Shown here piece after piece: positions 1,879-42,316 of a stretch of DNA of 64,000 nucleotides. The notes under the pieces were generated by a model. It saw nothing but the letters and a program-made list of their open reading frames with translations, searched no databases and had not been told where the DNA came from. How positions within the stretch are numbered: the first letter of the stretch is position 1; every line of letters starts with the position of its first letter. A program made the translations under genes and the position numbers. Origin of the DNA: a virus (Duplodnaviria > Heunggongvirae > Uroviricota > Caudoviricetes); the IMG/VR virus record IMGVR_UViG_3300022719_000283, positions 188,067-252,066 of that record; one strand, given 5' to 3'.

Positions 1879-4308
1879 TCAGGCCAGAAACTCAGCCAAC
1901 CGTATTTTCACGTTCTCGGGATCGGCCTTGACCTCGGATTCCCAGATCACCAGGCATTCGAGCCCGACTTCGGCGTAGGCTTCGATGAGCTCGGACTCGT
2001 GCTCGAACGGCGCCTTTCCCGTGAACATCCGTGAGTGCCAGAAGTCGCCGAAGGCTTCGACAATTTTGGTCACGTTCTTCTTCGGTTTCTTCGGATCAGG
2101 CCCCGGCAAGATGAAGTCCGGGTTCTTATGGTGCCCAAGTTTCGGCAGCCACCTCCAGAATTTCCGATCCCCTGTGTACATGAGCCGGGACTCGAGCCTG
2201 GCCACGCGACGCTCGAGGCCGTTCGGACCGAACTTCGTGGACTCTCCCATCTGATGCAGGAAGTAGGACGCGTAATCGCGATCGCTCTGTGGGTGCGTGA
2301 CCCCGTAGCGCTCGACCAAATCGTCCTCCGATGAAGCCGGGGTCTCGTAATCCGGGAACGTCTTTCCCACCTTGGCGAGACAGGTGCGAATCGTCTTTTC
2401 ACGTACAGGGATAGCGACAAGCGTGTAGTCAACTCCGAACCGCTCAAGAACCGTCTCACGGATCTTCTCCCTGATGACAGGAGAAGCCCCTGCTTTCCGC
2501 GCCCCATACCGTTCCTCCAGCACGTCCCCGACATGCTCGGATTCGATGGCGGATTTTGAGCCATACCGGTCCAAACAAGTGGCCACGACCTTGGCCATGG
2601 TCTCGGGGCTTTGGAGCGGGCTGTTTACCCCGTAACGCTCTTGGCAGGTCTCCCGGCGCTTCTCCAGAAACTCCTCGAGCTGGAGCGGGTGGGGGACCCC
2701 GTACTTCTCGATGAATCTCTCAACCTGCTGCTCCCAGAAACCTTCGACCTGGGCGTAGTAGTCCACGCCGTACTTGGCCTGCATCCCCTCAACCACACGA
2801 CGCTTGCCCTCCTCGGAGGCGAAGAAATGTGAGCCATAGTTCGTCTCCATCGTCTCAAGTTGCCGGCGACGTACATCAGGGTCCATCGTGGTCCACGGCA
2901 CCCCATACCGCTCAAGATTCGTTTGCCGCTGCTTCTCCATCACTTCAGGGGAACACGAAGGGGCAGAGCCCCCGTAACGCTCCTCGTTAGTCGCCACGAT
3001 CTTCTCCCGGATTTCTGGAGCAGCGAGCACCTCCTCATGCCCATACCGCTCGAGGTTCGTCTCCATCGTCCGAGCTCGGATCTCTGGCACTTGCTGCGGG
3101 TTCTCGGCCCCATACCGCTCGGTCATCGTCTCCCTGATCTTCTCCTGCACCTCGGGCTGTGCGAACGGGTTGTCCTCTCCACGGAGTACAGGGCGTTTGC
3201 CCTCCAAAGATGCCTGGACCTCGTCGAACTTGCTGGACTCCTTGGAGAAGATACTCTCGGCGCCATACCGCTCAAGATTCGTGGCGCCCACCTTGGCGCG
3301 AATCTCCTCGGATTGCATCGGATTCTCCACTCCGTGGCGCTCCAGCATCGTCCGCACACGTCGAGCGCGGGCCACCGCATCCGCATCCCGCGTCTGCCAC
3401 ACCACACACACCTGCCGGTGCCTCTTCATCTGGGTCAACGAGGTGCTCTCATGCCCGCACAGACACGGCTCGGGATCTTCCGTGTCAGACCACCCCTCGC
3501 AGATCGCCTTATGGCGACTCGTGACCTTGGTGAACACCTCGTCACAATGAGGACAGATCTCGTAGTTGCCCGAAGCGATCAGATCTTCTCTCCGCGCCTT
3601 TTCGCGTTCTCCTCGAACACGCGCCAGCTCGGCATGCCAAATCGCGGATTGCAGGAACGAAACAGACCCGTGACGCTCCAACGTGGTCTGCTCGGTGCGT
3701 CGTCGAATCTCAGGAACCTGCTGCGGATTCTCGGCCCCGTGACGGTCAAGGTTTGTCGCGCGGATTTTCTCCTTGATCCCCTCGGACGCGAACACGTTGT
3801 CGACGCCGTACCTTTTGAGATTGGTCTTCTTTCGCCGCCGTTTCACCTCTTCAGCTTGGAGATGGTGATCAACACCGTACTTCTCCTGGGCAATTTGGCG
3901 CGTCTTCTCCTTGACTTCTTCGCTCTGACCGACGTTATCGACGCCGTACCGTTTCTGCGTCGTCTTCTTCCGTTTGGCGCCTGAAGAACGCGCGACCACC
4001 GGAACTCCAGGAAACCGGGTCTCGTACTCCTTGCGTTTCATCCCGTCGTGAACGCGCTTTAGATGGTCGCTCAGACGCTTCACACGGACCTCTGCGCCCT
4101 CGGAGGCGCAGAGAAGGCATCCGACGTAGTCCTCCCCCTCGACCTTCTCAGGGGCCCACAGACCGCGCTCGAAGTGCCTATCAAAGTTGAACTCCGACGG
4201 CGGCACTCCGATGACCTCGTCCCATTTCGAACAACTGTTCGTGTGCTTGGGAACGGCCTTGGGGGAGGAGAGGAGTTTCTGGCAAGCGGGACAGCGCAAC
4301 TCGGTCAC
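1879..4308 (-). CDS. Homing-endonuclease-like protein: N-terminal Cys/His zinc finger, about 16 tandem ~30-aa NUMOD3-like repeats, C-terminal Vsr/DUF559-like PD-(D/E)XK nuclease domain
   Basis: 809-aa ORF. N-terminus CPACQ...H..C. Repeated units of the type [SQ]EEI+AK+xATNLERYG[VA]ENPxQ occur about 16 times. C-terminus KIVEAFGDFWHSR resembles the Vsr FVDGCFWH motif. Confidence 0.6.
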   Translation of the reverse strand: MTELRCPACQKLLSSPKAVPKHTNSCSKWDEVIGVPPSEFNFDRHFERGLWAPEKVEGEDYVGCLLCASEGAEVRVKRLSDHLKRVHDGMKRKEYETRFPGVPVVARSSGAKRKKTTQKRYGVDNVGQSEEVKEKTRQIAQEKYGVDHHLQAEEVKRRRKKTNLKRYGVDNVFASEGIKEKIRATNLDRHGAENPQQVPEIRRRTEQTTLERHGSVSFLQSAIWHAELARVRGEREKARREDLIASGNYEICPHCDEVFTKVTSRHKAICEGWSDTEDPEPCLCGHESTSLTQMKRHRQVCVVWQTRDADAVARARRVRTMLERHGVENPMQSEEIRAKVGATNLERYGAESIFSKESSKFDEVQASLEGKRPVLRGEDNPFAQPEVQEKIRETMTERYGAENPQQVPEIRARTMETNLERYGHEEVLAAPEIREKIVATNEERYGGSAPSCSPEVMEKQRQTNLERYGVPWTTMDPDVRRRQLETMETNYGSHFFASEEGKRRVVEGMQAKYGVDYYAQVEGFWEQQVERFIEKYGVPHPLQLEEFLEKRRETCQERYGVNSPLQSPETMAKVVATCLDRYGSKSAIESEHVGDVLEERYGARKAGASPVIREKIRETVLERFGVDYTLVAIPVREKTIRTCLAKVGKTFPDYETPASSEDDLVERYGVTHPQSDRDYASYFLHQMGESTKFGPNGLERRVARLESRLMYTGDRKFWRWLPKLGHHKNPDFILPGPDPKKPKKNVTKIVEAFGDFWHSRMFTGKAPFEHESELIEAYAEVGLECLVIWESEVKADPENVKIRLAEFLA

Positions 4309-23876: not shown

Positions 23877-25280
23877 CTAGCTCTTGAAGGTGAGCAGCGG
23901 CCGAAGACGAAGGACCGGGCTTGCAAGTCCTTGCTCTTCTTGGATTTTCACGATGGGATCGATGTCCTTGTAGGCTGCGGGAGCTTCCTCCCAGAGCCGC
24001 TCTTCACGAAGTGTCACGCAGTCCACCCCATCGAGTCCAAGATCGAAATCCGGCCGGCCTTTTCGAGTCATCTCAAACCGGGTCCGAGACCGACCCGCCC
24101 CGTGGGAAGCCGACCGCAAGAAACGGTCGTTCCCCAATCCTCGCATTACGTACGAGGATGTTCCCATGGAGCCGGGAATCAGAACCCACTGTCCTTCCCA
24201 GGCCGGCGTCGCACCCTTGCGATGAACGAAGGCATCGTCTTCGTAGGTCACGATGTTATGGGACACGTCGTAGAAACAGCTCGCATCAACATTTCCGAAA
24301 ACCTGACGAAATCGGTAACGCACCATCGTGGAGAGAAGGGCACGGTTCACAGCAGCGAAGTTAGCCGCACATCCCATGGCAAGCATGTACTCGTGGGCGT
24401 CCTCATTGTAGAGCGGGAACACTTCCGGCCACTTGAGCCCTTTCGGCCACTTTTTCTTCGCAATCTCTTGGAACCGTGTACCGATCCCCTTCCCCACCGA
24501 ACGGGAACCTGTGTGAATCATGAACACGATGTCTCCGTACTTCAGGTTGGGCCAGGTCCATTGGAGAGCCTCGTAATCAAGAACCTCTTCGACCATCTGG
24601 ATTTCGACGAAATGGTTCCCTCCTCCGACCGTCCCCAGGTCTGGGTCTCGGATCACGTCCCTGCTGTAGTCGATCCGGTCTTGAACCCACTTGGTGTCGG
24701 ACACGAAAGACCCCTGGTGCCAGATGTACTTGGCATCAAGGGCCAAGTGATCCTTGGCGCGAGCCATCAATCCCATCGGGTTCTTATAGAGCTCCTGTTC
24801 CCAACCATAGGCCCCGTGCTCGTAGATCGCGTGCAGGGTGGACGGAGTCATCGGAAGGTCCCGGGTCCCCAGCAAAAGATCACCGCGAAGTAGCTCCACG
24901 AGCTCGTCCTTGCGAGCGAGGAATTGGTCGACCGTTACGTCGATCAGATCCAAACGCATCCCGCAATTGATGTCCGTCCCGATGGCCTGCGGAATCACCA
25001 TGTCGGCCGTTGCCACAACGCATCCGACAGGAACGATGTTGCCAGGATGAAAGTCGGGAGTGGCACAGGCTTGACACACGTGGCCGCCACTTGGGTGGGA
25101 AGCCGAGGCAAATGACACGAGCTGTTTCACCGCTTTGGTCTCGAGCGGGGAGCCTTCGGGCAAAAGAATCTCAGCCGCCGGGCCTTCGTGAGAGGCGCGA
25201 CGAACCTTGTAAACAGGACCGTCTTGAGAAATCTCGATGCCTTCACGCAGGAGGGCTCGAGCCAGTCGTTTGAATTTCAT
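23877..25280 (-). CDS. rtcB: RNA ligase RtcB (3'-phosphate/5'-hydroxyl RNA ligase)
   Basis: GTVGGGNHFVEIQ, HTGSRSVGKGIG, IPGSMG and SHGAGR are RtcB active-site signatures. The start is set at the internal MKFKRL (residue 50 of the 516-aa ORF) to drop an implausible N-terminal extension. Confidence 0.85.
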   Translation of the reverse strand: MKFKRLARALLREGIEISQDGPVYKVRRASHEGPAAEILLPEGSPLETKAVKQLVSFASASHPSGGHVCQACATPDFHPGNIVPVGCVVATADMVIPQAIGTDINCGMRLDLIDVTVDQFLARKDELVELLRGDLLLGTRDLPMTPSTLHAIYEHGAYGWEQELYKNPMGLMARAKDHLALDAKYIWHQGSFVSDTKWVQDRIDYSRDVIRDPDLGTVGGGNHFVEIQMVEEVLDYEALQWTWPNLKYGDIVFMIHTGSRSVGKGIGTRFQEIAKKKWPKGLKWPEVFPLYNEDAHEYMLAMGCAANFAAVNRALLSTMVRYRFRQVFGNVDASCFYDVSHNIVTYEDDAFVHRKGATPAWEGQWVLIPGSMGTSSYVMRGLGNDRFLRSASHGAGRSRTRFEMTRKGRPDFDLGLDGVDCVTLREERLWEEAPAAYKDIDPIVKIQEEQGLASPVLRLRPLLTFKS

Positions 25281-25429
25281 GATGCTGAACTCCAGTGAAC
25301 CTCTCTCAACCGCGCGGGAGAGAGGCTCGGAAAGGGTCTGGTTGTTCAGCAGCCGCGGCAGTGCGCGGACAGCTCCTTGTAACCCAAGACCCGAAGAAGT
25401 GCAAGCGGGGCTGCCGGTAAGGTGCATGC

Positions 25430-38304: not shown

Positions 38305-38678
38305 CAGGACCCCTTGTTGCCAGTGGTTGCGTGCTCCTTGTGCCAGGCGATGTAACGTAGCAACTCCTGGCTGAAATCCAGACCTACTTCCTTGCTTCCT
38401 GTCGCAACGCACCGAATCGGCCCTGGGACCTTCGGATACCGTTCGTACATGTAGTGCCGCTGATCGTCCCGGCTCACTCCCTCATTCCCCATCGCACAAT
38501 CACGGATATGGAGCAGGATTCGAACCATAACTTCCGCCGCATGGAGATGCTCTTCACCCCCTACGTACATGAGAGGGCGTTGGGCAATTTGCATGATCTG
38601 AACATCGATGCTTTCAAGTGTCTCCTTGAGACGCTGAGAAGCCATGCGGTCATCAAAAGAATCGGAGCCTTCCACCAT
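38304..38678 (-). CDS. Hypothetical protein (124 aa)
   Basis: ORF; no motif. Confidence 0.4.
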   Translation of the reverse strand: MVEGSDSFDDRMASQRLKETLESIDVQIMQIAQRPLMYVGGEEHLHAAEVMVRILLHIRDCAMGNEGVSRDDQRHYMYERYPKVPGPIRCVATGSKEVGLDFSQELLRYIAWHKEHATTGNKGS

Positions 38679-38686
38679 GAATCACT

Positions 38687-38944
38687 CTACCCGCACTGGA
38701 TGCACCGGATCTTGTTCGGTGCAGGTGCTGCATCCTTGAGAGATCGCAAAGGACCGTCTTTCCGACGCCCTCCCCAGGTCAGGCCCACGTTTCCCCGATA
38801 GACCACACGCCTCACGTCCTCGTGACCACACTCGAGCTCCAAGCACCAGAAACGGCCCAGCTCGTCGTCCTGGAGATCGGCTTTCACGACACGACGGAAA
38901 GGATCCTTTCGGTGCGCTGTCATAGAATCTGATCGCGATCCCAT
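38687..38944 (-). CDS. Small Cys-containing protein (85 aa)
   Basis: CLELECGHE...CIQCG. Confidence 0.35.
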   Translation of the reverse strand: MGSRSDSMTAHRKDPFRRVVKADLQDDELGRFWCLELECGHEDVRRVVYRGNVGLTWGGRRKDGPLRSLKDAAPAPNKIRCIQCG

Positions 38945-39224
38945 TTCCTTAACCTTGACTCCTGATCAAGGAGGATCGCGGAGGGCTTCGAGCATCGCGG
39001 TCTTGAGACGACTCATCATCTCGGGACTCTCATACTGATCTGACGCGATTCCCAGCGTGCCGCAGACCGCCCCGATCACCCGCTCCATCTCCACATCGAC
39101 AGGAGGGACACGAGCCAAGCGCCGATGACGATGGGCAAAGCCCCTCCATGGTGCATTCGAAACACGGAAGATCGTGATCTGGACTTCGTCCTTGAGATCC
39201 AGGATGCGAACCGTACTCCGAAAC

Positions 39225-40667
39225 CTAGGTAATCCTAGGTGACTCGGATTCGAGGCTGTGCCGACCTCTCCTCGGGGGAGATGCTCCGGTAGTAAGCCTC
39301 CGGCCTGACGGTTCAGGCGCGGGGGGTGCCTTTCGGCAGAGTCCCGCGGGACTGGTCCTCGATCCCCTTCGGAGATCTCGGAATCGCGCTCGCAGCAACT
39401 CCCTCACGTCTCGATGGTGATCTCCAAGACCAACCTGTTCATCCTCGGAACGTCCGAGCAGATTGATCCCTCCCACCACATCAGCGTGAGACCGCCTGCC
39501 GCATGAGCGACAGACGAAATTAACTCCTGATCGGTTCCGTCGTGAGACGTAACCACAGGAAGGACAAGTCTGGGACGTGTACGCCGGATTCGCCTTGATG
39601 GTCGGCGCCTTCGTCTCCAAACTGTGGGCTAGAGCCCTGTAAGCAAATCTCTTCTGCCCTCGACAACCTCGGAGGTCGAGGTCTTCGACCACGAACACCG
39701 TGCCCTTGGGGGCATCACGAACGAGCTTGTTCGCTACCTCTCCAGTGATCGTTTTCACCATCCCCGTGAGTTTCGACTCTAAGCGGTCGAGCCTGGGGCT
39801 GTTCTCCTTCAAACCCTGTCGTTGGCGGTTGGCCCGGAGACTCCTGACGCGCTCGTAGAGCCGGTCGAACTTGGGCTTGAGTTCGGCACCAAAGGTTCGG
39901 CCGTCCGACGTGGCAGCCACCACGTTCAGGCCAACATCAACACCGATTCTGGGAGCGTCAGGTTGGGGTTCGGGGACAACCCATTCCTTCTTCTCGACCG
40001 TCTCAAACCTCCAACGTCCCCTCTTGTCCTTGCGAGCGTGAATCCCTTTCGACACGTCGGATGCGGACTTGACGTAGGGGTTCCCACACAACGGGAGCCA
40101 GATGACTTTCCTGGAGACCAAGGTGGAGATCTTGATCCACATGGGCGCCACCACGGCTTCGTCGGCGTCGGTCAACGTGCAGGTGTTCTCCGACAACCGC
40201 ATCGGGATGCGTTCGGACACCTTTGGTGGATTGCCGGAGATCTCGGTATCGAGGAGGATCGCCCAATAGGCGTTGATGGCCTCCTGAGTGACGTGTTTCC
40301 AGGGCTCTGATATCAGGTGCTTGCCGACCGTGCAGAGGGCGTATCGTTCCTCTTGGGAGATTCCCCCGAACCTGTGGAGACGAGTGATGTACTTCTTGAG
40401 GGCGCGCTCGTAGGTAGCCTTGGCCCATGTGGAGACGATTTGGATGGCGTGGTCGCGTGCGTTCTTTTGAATCTGGGAAGTGAGCCCCTCGGCTTTCGGG
40501 AAGAACGCCTGTTTCTCCGACCGCTTAAGGTTCAGGCGGTGGTTGTCGAGCATGTGCTGCACGCAGATGCGGACGTAGGACACGTACTCGACGTGTAACG
40601 CCTCCAAGGCGGCGACCTTGCCCGGATTGGTCTCCGAGTGGAGGTAGAGGTGTCGTGACTTCTTCAT
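39225..40667 (-). CDS. tnpB: TnpB (OMEGA / RuvC-like RNA-guided nuclease), IS605/IS607 OrfB family
   Basis: RuvC-I IGVDVGLN, RuvC-II VFVVEDL, zinc finger CPSCG...CRSCG, RuvC-III HADVVGGINLL. The C-terminal tail probably reads through the omega-RNA region. Confidence 0.8.
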   Translation of the reverse strand: MKKSRHLYLHSETNPGKVAALEALHVEYVSYVRICVQHMLDNHRLNLKRSEKQAFFPKAEGLTSQIQKNARDHAIQIVSTWAKATYERALKKYITRLHRFGGISQEERYALCTVGKHLISEPWKHVTQEAINAYWAILLDTEISGNPPKVSERIPMRLSENTCTLTDADEAVVAPMWIKISTLVSRKVIWLPLCGNPYVKSASDVSKGIHARKDKRGRWRFETVEKKEWVVPEPQPDAPRIGVDVGLNVVAATSDGRTFGAELKPKFDRLYERVRSLRANRQRQGLKENSPRLDRLESKLTGMVKTITGEVANKLVRDAPKGTVFVVEDLDLRGCRGQKRFAYRALAHSLETKAPTIKANPAYTSQTCPSCGYVSRRNRSGVNFVCRSCGRRSHADVVGGINLLGRSEDEQVGLGDHHRDVRELLRARFRDLRRGSRTSPAGLCRKAPPAPEPSGRRLTTGASPPRRGRHSLESESPRIT

Positions 40668-40915
40668 TCGTCTTTCGGGTCAAGTGCAGGACCATCCGGC
40701 TCAGCCATAGGCTCCCCAGGATCAAGGCTATCGTCTAATGCGTTCGCAAGGTGATCGCGTGCGCGTGTAACAAAGCCCGGCGGCTTATCCATACCATTCA
40801 ACCACTGTTGAAGTTCCGCCCAAGCCTGCACGACGTTTTGAAACTGCCGACGTGCCAGGTGATTGTCGGGCAGTTGCCGCAGATATTCTTTCATTGACAT
40901 TTCCCTATCAGCCAT
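40664..40915 (-). CDS. 83-aa ORF between tnpA and tnpB
   Basis: Its start is 22 nt after the tnpA stop and its stop overlaps the tnpB start by 4 nt (ATGA). Helical-looking composition. Confidence 0.4.
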   Translation of the reverse strand: MADREMSMKEYLRQLPDNHLARRQFQNVVQAWAELQQWLNGMDKPPGFVTRARDHLANALDDSLDPGEPMAEPDGPALDPKDE

Positions 40916-40936
40916 CGATGCCTCCTTGAATTCCGG

Positions 40937-41683
40937 TCATGCTGCTTTCTCCTTCCGTTTCTTCTTGCGGCGGTTCTCCGCGCTTCGTTTGCCGTAGATG
41001 CGGGCCGAGAAGCTCGACATCAGCGACAGCATGTCCTCCACCAACTCTTCCTCGTAACTCTTGCCCAACACGTCTTCTACCCACTCCACCTCGACACCGT
41101 GGCTCTGGAAATACGCCTGCAAGAACCCGAAGTTGAACCGGCACAGACGGTCCTTGTGCTCGACCACGACAACATCGACCTCGTGGGCGTCCACCAGCTT
41201 GAACAGCCGGTGGAGTTTTGGCCTCGTGTCCGACATGCCCGAACCTATTTCTTCAAATGCGCCAACGAGTTTGTATCCTTGACGGGCGACATGGGCGACG
41301 ACGCGATCCGACTGGCGTTCGAGATCACCCTTCTGTTTCTGGTCGTGACTGCTGACCCGGCAATAGGCAACCGCCCGAATCTCCTGGTTTTCACGCTCGG
41401 GGGATTCTCGACCCTGGAACTTCTCGACGTCGGAGAGCCGGTACTTCCGCCACCCTCCGGGCGTCCTGACGGCTTTCAAGGTGCCGTCAGCGTCCCAACG
41501 GCGGAGGGTACTGATGTGGACGCCGAGAAGCTCAGCGGTCTTTCCTGGACCCAGGAGCCTGTCCTGGGAGGAGTCCTTGGGTTTTGAAGATTTCCCGCCA
41601 CTGGTCGTGGATCGCCTGGAACTCCTTGACGGACGGGATTTTGCCGTCTTGGAAGGGGATCGGGTGCGGGAAGACTTTGCCAT
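40937..41683 (-). CDS. tnpA: IS607-family TnpA serine recombinase with N-terminal MerR-like HTH
   Basis: TAELLGVHISTLRRWDADGTL is a MerR-type HTH. AVAYCRVSSHDQK is the serine-recombinase catalytic motif, followed by a resolvase-like core. Confidence 0.8.
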   Translation of the reverse strand: MAKSSRTRSPSKTAKSRPSRSSRRSTTSGGKSSKPKDSSQDRLLGPGKTAELLGVHISTLRRWDADGTLKAVRTPGGWRKYRLSDVEKFQGRESPERENQEIRAVAYCRVSSHDQKQKGDLERQSDRVVAHVARQGYKLVGAFEEIGSGMSDTRPKLHRLFKLVDAHEVDVVVVEHKDRLCRFNFGFLQAYFQSHGVEVEWVEDVLGKSYEEELVEDMLSLMSSFSARIYGKRSAENRRKKKRKEKAA

Positions 41684-41962
41684 CTTCGGTCTCGAATTCG
41701 GTGGCGCTGACGCGAATCACCTTGATCTTGGACATCGCGTCTCTCCTTTCGTGGAAAGTATAGGCAGAAAAACGCAGCTTTGAGAAACTATACCCACGTT
41801 TCACCCGAACAGTTCAGAACCCCTCTGGGGTCCGGATTTCGATGAGCCACTGGTCCTCTACCACGCGCCGGATGGGAGCGATTTCAGTCCCGGCCCGATG
41901 GACGTGTCCCGGGCGATCCTTGCTGGGGAGGTCAACCTTCAAACGTGAAATGTAGCTGACGG

Positions 41963-42235
41963 TCATAGTCCCTTCTCCAAGAGATCGTTGACCATCTCAA
42001 GGGTGACCTTGCAGTGGGCACGATACACGACGATGTCGGGAGGCTCGAGAGGAGTCATGGGAGGTTCTTTGTCATGGAGGCCCAAAGTCAAAATACTCTG
42101 AACGCCCCACCGAAACGAGTCCCACCAACTCGGGGGCTGAGGCTCCGGGTGCGTGTCAAGCCAGTCTTGGCAGCGCTTCCTGACGCGTACGCAGAGGGCA
42201 ATATCCTCAGCGGAAAGTTCCTCGGCCTTATCCAC
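41963..42235 (-). CDS. Hypothetical protein (90 aa)
   Basis: ORF. Confidence 0.35.
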   Translation of the reverse strand: MDKAEELSAEDIALCVRVRKRCQDWLDTHPEPQPPSWWDSFRWGVQSILTLGLHDKEPPMTPLEPPDIVVYRAHCKVTLEMVNDLLEKGL

Positions 42236-42316
42236 GCGTCAAGTTGCCTTTCCAAATCGAACCCGAAATACCTCGAGAACTACCTGGCCCGGTAGGCCAA
42301 TTTGGATTCGCGGACA

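Follow-up and report, generated by a model that had tools for sequence, protein, structure and literature searches.

A 64,000-nucleotide (nt) stretch of tailed-phage DNA (Caudoviricetes; IMG/VR record IMGVR_UViG_3300022719_000283, positions 188,067 to 252,066), referred to below as the window, contains at approximately 41821-39211 on the minus strand what is in all likelihood a single intact IS607-family transposon, inserted in the genome of a huge phage and carrying a passenger open reading frame (ORF), orfX. The layout of the element does not match the IS607 arrangement of two genes only, a serine-recombinase transposase (tnpA) followed by an RNA-guided nuclease (tnpB), and consists of orfU, tnpA, a 269-nt cassette with orfX, and tnpB. 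Since relatives of the same lineage that lack cargo overlap tnpA and tnpB directly by ATGA, we regard the window copy as a variant architecture and not as a member of a different family. The features of the element, in window coordinates, are as follows (aa, amino acids).

39211-41821, minus strand: whole IS607-type element, ~2.6 kb, delimited by comparison with ~60 related loci.
41821-41825, minus strand: left junction GAGGG, the presumed target or target-adjacent motif (TAM), with the GG core dinucleotide.
41736-41820, minus strand: left end, non-coding, conserved in close relatives (~80% nt identity to loci L002, L090 and L005).
41532-41735, minus strand: orfU, 67 aa, overlapping the start of tnpA.
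40937-41683, minus strand: tnpA, 248 aa, with Pfam and NCBIfam matches.
40908-40940, minus strand: 10-codon mini-ORF, MTGIQGGIDG, read directly from the sequence.
40664-40915, minus strand: orfX, 83 aa, an orphan ORF in the slot between tnpA and tnpB.
39225-40667, minus strand: tnpB, 480 aa, RNA-guided nuclease of a ~475-aa family.
39210-39418, minus strand: guide-RNA (omega RNA) scaffold, ~209 nt, overlapping the last ~64 tnpB codons and ending at the right end.
39217-39248, minus strand: last stem-loop of the scaffold, with the palindrome 39239-39224 as its tip.
39190-39209, minus strand: presumed guide, flank DNA transcribed after the scaffold, UUCGCAUCCUGGAUCUCAAG, placed from the TnpB mechanism.

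The contexts of TnpB homologues were fetched and compared with the window by blastn. L002/L003 and L090/L091 have the left end, tnpA and tnpB in common with the window at ~80% nt identity, but their flanks are unrelated; the right end is also common to L002, L090 and the window. In L005/L006 the same 110-bp left end is fused straight onto tnpB. In every comparison with relatives in different flanks, similarity sets in with a conserved GGGT (window ~41822) and ends with ...GAGTACGG(T), that is, ...GAGTACGGT (window 39211/39210); both motifs, the initial GGGT and the terminal ACGGT, are conserved family-wide. The right end ...TACGG(T) was invariant in 30 relatives, and 13 independent left junctions terminated in RRGG(G) ahead of the conserved left end, with the window reading GAGGG followed by the first G of the element. 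Owing to the G runs next to them, the two boundaries are each placed only to within ~2 nt. A search for terminal inverted repeats joining the two element ends found none, and the flanks CCCCAGAG and TTCGCATCC have nothing in common beyond the G run, so that there is no target-site duplication. The published rules for IS607 elements are insertion after GG, a CGG terminus, and neither inverted repeats nor target duplication, and the published IS607 TAMs are GAGGG, AGGG and TGGG (PMC13565253, PMC10690162). At the level of sequence, the left junction and CGG terminus of the window element fit these rules, and GAGGG would be expected to act as its TAM.

TnpA matched the NCBIfam IS607 transposase model NF033518 at 194 bits (cut-off 110) over essentially the full profile (positions 2-187 of 187; TnpA residues 48-238), with additional matches to Pfam Resolvase (87 bits) and the MerR helix-turn-helix (HTH), and the catalytic motif YCRVSSHDQK is present. 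TnpB scored 50.8 bits against the Pfam Cas12f1-like TNB domain (cut-off 26.3) and matched PHROG transposase families at 1e-27, and its RuvC residues D244, E328 and D396 as well as the zinc-finger cysteines C368/C371 and C386/C389 were invariant in 25 homologues. Both proteins look intact. A preliminary description of this DNA, made from its letters and ORFs, had proposed one IS607-type element with an intact TnpA (MerR-HTH plus serine recombinase) and an intact TnpB (RuvC-I/II/III plus zinc finger), and had left its ends and dinucleotide target to be defined by alignment. The comparisons above agree with that proposal throughout, since relatives carry the same left end, tnpA and tnpB, and they place the ends and a presumed GG target as well.

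The TnpB search returned 596 homologues of ~475 aa which, among the matches listed, covered ~88-100% of the query. Among 185,579 bacterial and archaeal species genomes the family is all but missing: there was one truncated match of 60%, and the rest were ~30% identical. It occurs instead in viral contigs of 125-497 kb, often in 2-4 copies each, and one member is found in LR745208.1, a 485-kb sequence submitted as that of an uncultured phage. Most loci of the family (>25) consist of a solo tnpB with its guide RNA and a ~90-nt left end, and have no tnpA. Two derivatives retain traces of the longer form: in L005 (624-656), from which tnpA has been deleted, the left end and eight orfU codons are kept as a leader ORF that overlaps the tnpB start (GTGA), and in the tnpA-deleted L126 (250-504) orfU is fused in frame to tnpB. 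L005 is a deletion derivative of an element like that in the window. The best match of the TnpB-family profile in the PDB was CasPhi-3 (7odf; E = 1.3e-13), with Cas12f and the TnpBs of known structure ranking behind it. The match covers only ~50 residues in the zinc-finger and RuvC-III region (TnpB residues 354-404; window ~39456-39608), and an evolutionary link between this huge-phage TnpB family and Cas12j is possible.

In order to define the guide RNA, a hidden Markov model of the 3' region was used to place the right end in ~60 loci, and 30 non-redundant 240-nt right ends were aligned. The consensus structure of the scaffold contains 44 pairs in 10 helices, 32 of them with compensatory changes. 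Pairing was seen in 93.5% of cells, compared with 28-50% when the partners were slid by 1-3 columns, and the covariation score was 0.563, compared with at most 0.143 in the slid controls; none of 500 shuffles reached 0.563. A single-sequence fold of the window scaffold gave z = -2.5 and reproduced the 3' helices. The scaffold stops exactly where similarity between the elements stops. Folding of the right-end region, which the preliminary description had suggested as a check, thus yields a structured scaffold supported by covariation.

The preliminary description had also pointed to a perfect palindrome at the tnpB stop and at the end of the omega RNA. The sequence CCTAGGTAATCCTAGG is at 39224-39239 (minus strand CCTAGG-ATTA-CCTAGG, 39239-39224), and the tnpB stop TAG (39227-39225) falls within its second arm. 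The position and the arms are thus as had been described, but the 16-mer is not a strict palindrome; it is a 6-bp stem with a 4-nt loop, TAAT, that is not self-complementary. Its assignment to the end of the omega RNA holds, since it is the tip of the last covarying stem-loop. This stem-loop corresponds to consensus helices 9 and 10, in which seven of nine pairs change on both sides and two on one, and relatives keep the last stem with other sequence, for example GGAAC...GTTCC. A 6-bp hairpin alone would be unremarkable, and it is the covariation in relatives that lifts the palindrome above chance. CCTAGG itself occurs only twice in the 64 kb, both times in the guide-RNA hairpin (expected 9.2 +/- 2.9). 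The phage genome seems depleted of CCTAGG and the element does not, which would fit avoidance of CTAG or of a restriction site.

A long ORF tail running over the guide RNA is normal for TnpB. Here the tnpB ORF was said to extend for about 80 codons beyond RuvC-III, into the presumed guide-RNA region, and the overlap with the scaffold at 39418-39210 bears this out. The last 80 codons had a codon score of -0.11, compared with +0.12 for the whole gene, and show no coding-like usage; of the loci with the conserved GGCACAG, 12 read it in tnpB frame 0 and six, including the window, in frame 1. Intact tnpB ORFs mostly terminate 7-52 nt short of the right end, and two continue across it. What shapes the tail of the tnpB ORF is the RNA rather than the function of the protein. 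The tnpB genes of L097 and L100 read past the transposon right end into the flank by 27-69 nt, so that their C-termini depend on the insertion site.

Several observations weigh against the interpretation of the window element as an intact and potentially mobile IS607 transposon. TnpB fell just under the cut-off of NCBIfam guided_TnpB (94.7; cut-off 100) and under that of Pfam OrfB_IS605 (24.2; cut-off 30.5), and scored 31 against IS607_TnpB (cut-off 350). Only TnpB residues ~187-418 align in family models, and the N-terminal ~190 residues matched no model in Pfam or NCBIfam. The scaffold has no match in a curated RNA family: an Rfam scan of 38500-42300 on both strands gave nothing up to E = 5, including RAGATH-18, the IS605-orfB RNAs and the group I intron. 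The start of tnpA is uncertain. Conservation of TnpA sets in only around residue 44. The ~43 codons that open the annotated gene (41554-41683, minus strand) are Ser/Arg/Lys-rich, lie in the +1 frame of orfU, fall outside every TnpA profile and show no coding-like codon usage. No ATG, GTG or TTG is present near the conserved N-terminus in the window, whereas L093, L098 and L136 have an ATG there. The protein could begin with a long N-terminal extension (40 aa in the +1 frame of orfU), use an unusual or unconventional start codon, or arise by frameshift from orfU. The promoter-like site in the left end, TTCTCA-18-TATACT (41786-41757), is a weak match, with one site found and 0.6 expected, and its use as a promoter is presumed. 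The passenger orfX may be untranslated. Finally, there is no direct evidence that the element is active: a second copy or remnant was not found within the 64-kb window, and an IMG/VR scan with the 129-aa protein reconstructed across the insertion site (see below) found no element-free relative.

The 83-aa ORF between tnpA and tnpB at 40664-40915, with its ATGA overlap with tnpB, is present as the preliminary description had it. The orfX stop TGA overlaps the tnpB ATG, an AAGGAGG lies 5 nt before the orfX ATG, and the gap is filled exactly; the ORF was also called by an independent gene caller (source annotation). The ATGA of tnpA opens the mini-ORF (40940-40908), which contains the AAGGAGG of orfX and ends 5 nt inside orfX, and for which we infer a role in translational coupling. 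The mini-ORF may be a scar of an ancestral tnpA-tnpB junction, or a device for such coupling.

Conservation of orfX was sought in a word-indexed set of 5.8 billion clustered proteins and by an exhaustive HMMER search of 1.84 billion representatives, and only orfX itself was returned. The same was true of tblastn against all fetched loci and the window, and there was no match in Pfam, NCBIfam or PHROGs. It is absent from the closest elements: in L005 the tnpA region is missing altogether, L002 carries an unrelated ORF of 136 aa at this position, and L090 has two unrelated ORFs of 171 and 85 aa. The preliminary description had treated the ORF as a component of the IS607 copy and had named a lack of conservation or of coding signal as evidence to the contrary. 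With no homologue in either protein search, and with the closest relatives lacking or replacing it, that part of the description does not stand; conservation was not found, and the coding signal is weak. The codon score of orfX, 0.091, is the best of its six frames but low. Among non-coding shadow ORFs of 60 codons or more, 8.7% score at least as high, and true-gene segments as long as orfX fall short of this value in 21% of cases. Its G+C content at third codon positions is 0.51, compared with 0.69-0.76 in host genes and the other genes of the element. AlphaFold2 modeling of the single sequence gave a helical hairpin with a disordered, acidic, proline-rich tail at a predicted local distance difference test score (pLDDT) of 67, too weak for a fold search.

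These same data leave some room for orfX not being a gene at all, the 269 nt between tnpA and tnpB then being spacer DNA, either non-coding or in decay (what is left of a former cargo, for instance), with one frame open by chance. The absence of any homologue, the deviating third-position composition, the codon score within reach of shadow ORFs and the only moderate model are all in keeping with such a spacer, and by our own estimate an 83-codon open frame would arise by chance a few percent of the time at this G+C. We nevertheless consider it unlikely, given that orfX fills the gap with a consensus AAGGAGG 5 nt upstream and an ATGA like that of the cargo ORFs of relatives, and given that it tops the six frames and is also found by an independent gene caller. 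In addition, tnpB has no strong Shine-Dalgarno sequence of its own and so is probably coupled to an upstream translated ORF. On balance orfX is probably a real passenger, recently acquired or newly arisen.

It is less plausible that orfX serves the element as an accessory, whether as a regulator or inhibitor of TnpA or TnpB or as an anti-defence factor to the benefit of element or phage. Co-transcription and translational coupling with tnpB would suit such a role, for which Arc in IS605 is a precedent (bioRxiv 10.64898/2026.09.24.754181), and the same slot holds DNA methyltransferases in relatives, plausibly for protection from restriction. However, orfX is missing in every relative, including those with tnpB ~80% identical at the nucleotide level, so it is not needed for transposition or homing, and it has no recognisable domain. 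We consider an accessory function improbable; the distribution of orfX indicates that it is not part of the element machinery and is neither conserved nor defining in the family.

The variable occupancy of the tnpA-tnpB junction, which the preliminary description does not contain, was examined in the non-redundant full elements of this TnpB family, ~12 in number. About seven of these are free of cargo; a direct tnpA-(A/G)TGA-tnpB junction is seen in L098, L099, L136, L128 and L211, the last of which has an ordinary TnpB, and L132 and L139 have near-zero gaps between the two genes. The remaining ~5 carry cargo: 83 aa in the window, 136 aa in L002, 171 and 85 aa in L090, 111 and 144 aa in L093, and 188 aa in L101. 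Except in the window, the cargo ORFs start at the (A/G)TGA of tnpA and end at the (A/G)TGA of tnpB. No homology was found between the cargo ORFs of different elements. The TnpA proteins of L101 and L128 are 90% identical, yet L101 contains the 188-aa cargo and L128 none, so the gain or loss of cargo is recent. The 136-aa cargo of L002 has partial paralogues in the window at 60416-60270 (minus strand; 45% over 49 aa) and 54001-53729 (minus strand; 30% over 91 aa), so that cargo ORFs can belong to small multi-copy phage gene families. Ahead of the solo tnpB in L007 lies a homologue, 54% identical, of the 85-aa cargo of L090.

In other viral contigs, elements that combine orfU and tnpA with ordinary TnpBs of 399-412 aa have DNA methyltransferases in the slot. 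Most of the methyltransferase and LAGLIDADG genes of these elements are located between tnpA and tnpB, and the listed coordinates of enzyme genes inside elements also include L205 3655-4632 and L204 4232-5263.

L206 4284-5009 and L208 4284-4991: N6/N4 DNA methyltransferases in the slot.
L201 4326-5048: D12-class methyltransferase in the slot.
L205: C5 methyltransferase between orfU and tnpA.
L204 and L205: LAGLIDADG endonucleases inside the elements.

A search of the literature found no specific report of a small ORF ahead of tnpA, or of methyltransferase cargo, in IS607 elements. We put forward, tentatively and at somewhat less than even odds, that the window element represents an undescribed huge-phage lineage of IS607 with a core orfU and a modular ATGA cargo slot, the cargo being spread by TnpB homing. 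In such a lineage orfX would be one cassette, possibly caught soon after its acquisition or de novo birth, and the slot would shuttle small phage genes and orphan DNA methyltransferases.

The second small ORF, orfU, was absent from the preliminary description. It is preceded by a ribosome-binding site of the Shine-Dalgarno type, GAAAGGAGAG, within the left end, and overlaps the annotated tnpA start in another frame. Homologues occupy the same position in L002, L090, L093, L098, L099, L136 and L126, and scanning IMG/VR with the orfU alignment gave 15 loci, for at least 15 non-identical elements overall. The homologues are 58-68 aa long and 33-91% identical, with 12 invariant residues, and the ratio of nonsynonymous to synonymous changes (pN/pS) is 0.13-0.51, indicating that orfU is under purifying selection. 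Its codon score is 0.23, and within the overlap the orfU frame scores +0.17 compared with -0.15 for the tnpA frame. No match was found in Pfam, NCBIfam or PHROGs (E <= 0.1-1), and a PDB profile search returned chance matches only. Two candidate identities were tried and rejected: a ribbon-helix-helix protein, no such domain being detected in the Pfam, NCBIfam, PHROGs or PDB profile searches, and an AbrB/MazE-like protein, for which hhalign against the AbrB N-terminal domain gave 0.4% probability (with an approximate reference sequence). A structure model of orfU from a four-sequence alignment had a pLDDT of 59, too weak for a fold search.

orfU accompanies the serine-recombinase TnpA irrespective of the TnpB lineage in the element. 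Since it follows TnpA and not TnpB, and adjoins the promoter region of the left end, a TnpA-linked role as regulator or accessory factor seems reasonable, and it may regulate the promoter or recombination as Arc does in IS605. An inverted repeat, GGTATAG...CTATAC (window 41757-41797, minus strand), is kept in L002, L090 and L005 and overlaps the -10 hexamer of the promoter-like site; TnpA or OrfU may bind at it.

The host of the element, on which the preliminary description is silent, is a huge phage rather than a giant virus infecting eukaryotes. This assignment is based on the use of Shine-Dalgarno sites, the genes of the neighborhood, the large viral contigs in which the family is found, and a carrier of 618,736 bp, the longest contig containing element sequence (according to its source). 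The genes of the window use Shine-Dalgarno sites and 4-nt stop-start overlaps. Next to the element, at 34-38 kb, are two response regulators, a PAS histidine kinase, a peptide deformylase and a NADAR-domain protein. It is very improbable that the element is instead a giant-virus IS607 with a Fanzor2-type nuclease and not a phage TnpB element. The near-absence of the TnpB family from bacterial and archaeal genomes and its presence in very large viral contigs would suit a Fanzor2, and one related contig encodes an eIF-1a-like domain. The Shine-Dalgarno sites and 4-nt overlaps, the peptide deformylase and bacterial two-component system nearby, the matches of a few neighboring proteins to PHROG families and the relative in the uncultured phage record LR745208.1 all argue for a phage.

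That tnpA and tnpB belong to two adjacent independent elements, with the 83-aa ORF as intervening host DNA, is a hypothesis we rejected as the least credible of all: most family members are indeed solo tnpB genes and orfU-tnpA modules do pair with different TnpB lineages, but left end, tnpA, tnpB and right end recur together in L002 and L090 within other genomic contexts, no end-like sequence was found between tnpA and tnpB, relatives without cargo overlap the two genes by ATGA, and similarity stops only at the outer ends.

The insertion of the IS607-type element in the phage genome has probably split a phage gene of ~129 aa. This split ORF likewise goes beyond the preliminary description. Removal of the element (41821-39211) joins the two flanking 50-aa ORFs in frame, giving an ORF of 129 aa.

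41822-41966, minus strand: 5' half of the interrupted host ORF, 50 aa; codon score 0.21; stop supplied by the left end (41816-41814).
38966-39209, minus strand: 3' half of the interrupted host ORF, open to the stop at 38966; codon scores 0.09 and 0.20.

An exact-match look-up of a flanking protein returned the same 13-kb contig only. This JGI contig, with the same sequence, ends ~330 bp upstream of the left end (window 42155), and such an assembly break near the element may reflect repeat copies or heterogeneity of the population. Farther from the element, the window contains RtcB (23877-25427) and an 809-aa protein with repeated DUF7487/homing-endonuclease modules (1879-4308). Almost none of the ten largest window ORFs has a known domain and a few match PHROG families, and most window ORFs over 500 aa are without a known domain. 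No tRNA genes were found in the 64-kb window.

Taken together, the anatomy of the element is compatible with the following mechanism. The element forms one tightly coupled operon that would be read from the left-end promoter through orfU, tnpA, the 10-codon bridging ORF, orfX, tnpB and the ~209-nt scaffold. As in characterised IS607 elements, TnpA would excise the element as a double-stranded circle and integrate it next to GG, the occupied site having GAGGG ahead of the element and CGG at its end. The predicted empty-site junction is CCCCAGAGG joined to TTCGCATCC, and the predicted circle junction is ...GAGTACGG joined to GTTCTGAAC... TnpB, together with the scaffold and a flank-derived guide of ~16-20 nt (about 39209-39190), would cut vacant GAGGG-flanked sites; a guide taken from the flank after the scaffold is the known TnpB mechanism (PMC8612924, PMC10690162). 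Recombination with an occupied copy would then restore the element, which in co-infecting phages would amount to homing. orfX would be co-transcribed, translationally coupled and carried passively, its expression riding on the operon.

In its other properties the element is an ordinary, well-preserved IS607/TnpB transposon with the 83-aa ORF as an unconserved orphan, and the findings address no long-standing open question. What is new is a covariation-supported scaffold, with defined ends, for a divergent ~475-aa TnpB family essentially confined to huge phages. This TnpB is directly testable as a compact editor and is a possible relative of the CasPhi ancestor, and orfU is a candidate counterpart of the IS605 Arc repressor. 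It is interesting to speculate that, if TnpB homing does spread these elements among co-infecting phages, cargo in the slot gains a free gene drive.

The closest known systems are the IS607-type elements themselves: IS607 of Helicobacter pylori, IS1535, and CboIStron of Clostridium botulinum, an IS607-type element that has been studied experimentally. Like the window element, these have a serine-recombinase TnpA with a MerR HTH and a tnpB downstream on the same strand. As in the window, elements of the IS607 family lack terminal inverted repeats and target duplications, have a G-rich GG motif before the element and a CGG end, and encode a right-end guide RNA that overlaps the 3' end of tnpB (PMC10690162, PMC13565253). 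The window element differs from the family in having four coupled ORFs and not two, with orfU upstream and an orphan ORF between tnpA and tnpB, in its ~475-aa TnpB, whose N-terminal half is unrecognised by models, and in its huge-phage host. It also has no group I intron, and its scaffold matches neither RAGATH-18 nor any other Rfam family. Most relatives of the window copy are solo tnpB elements of the IS1341 type, and the window copy represents the full, autonomous form.

Cargo in TnpB transposons is as such already known. Altae-Tran et al. (2023, PNAS; PMC10691335) noted cargo as a rare occurrence in serine-recombinase TnpB transposons, some of it encoding proteins of unknown domain; in their Ser-3 branch, for example, it comprises an extra HTH protein, a helicase, a WhiA-like protein or unknown-domain proteins. 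Those elements resemble the one described here in being serine-recombinase or TnpB elements with occasional extra genes, many of them without a known domain; in the window lineage the cargo lies at the ATGA junction with stop-start overlaps, a slot logic not given in that paper. Arc is a ribbon-helix-helix accessory repressor of IS605-family elements (bioRxiv 10.64898/2026.09.24.754181), and orfU resembles it in position only, as a small promoter-proximal accessory ORF overlapping tnpA; it differs in having no detectable DNA-binding domain and in its association with a serine-recombinase TnpA and not a Y1 TnpA. CasPhi/Cas12j shares with this TnpB family its residence in huge phages and the zinc-finger/RuvC-III match, whereas the window TnpB has no CRISPR array, is ~290 residues shorter, and is transposon-borne with a fused guide RNA.

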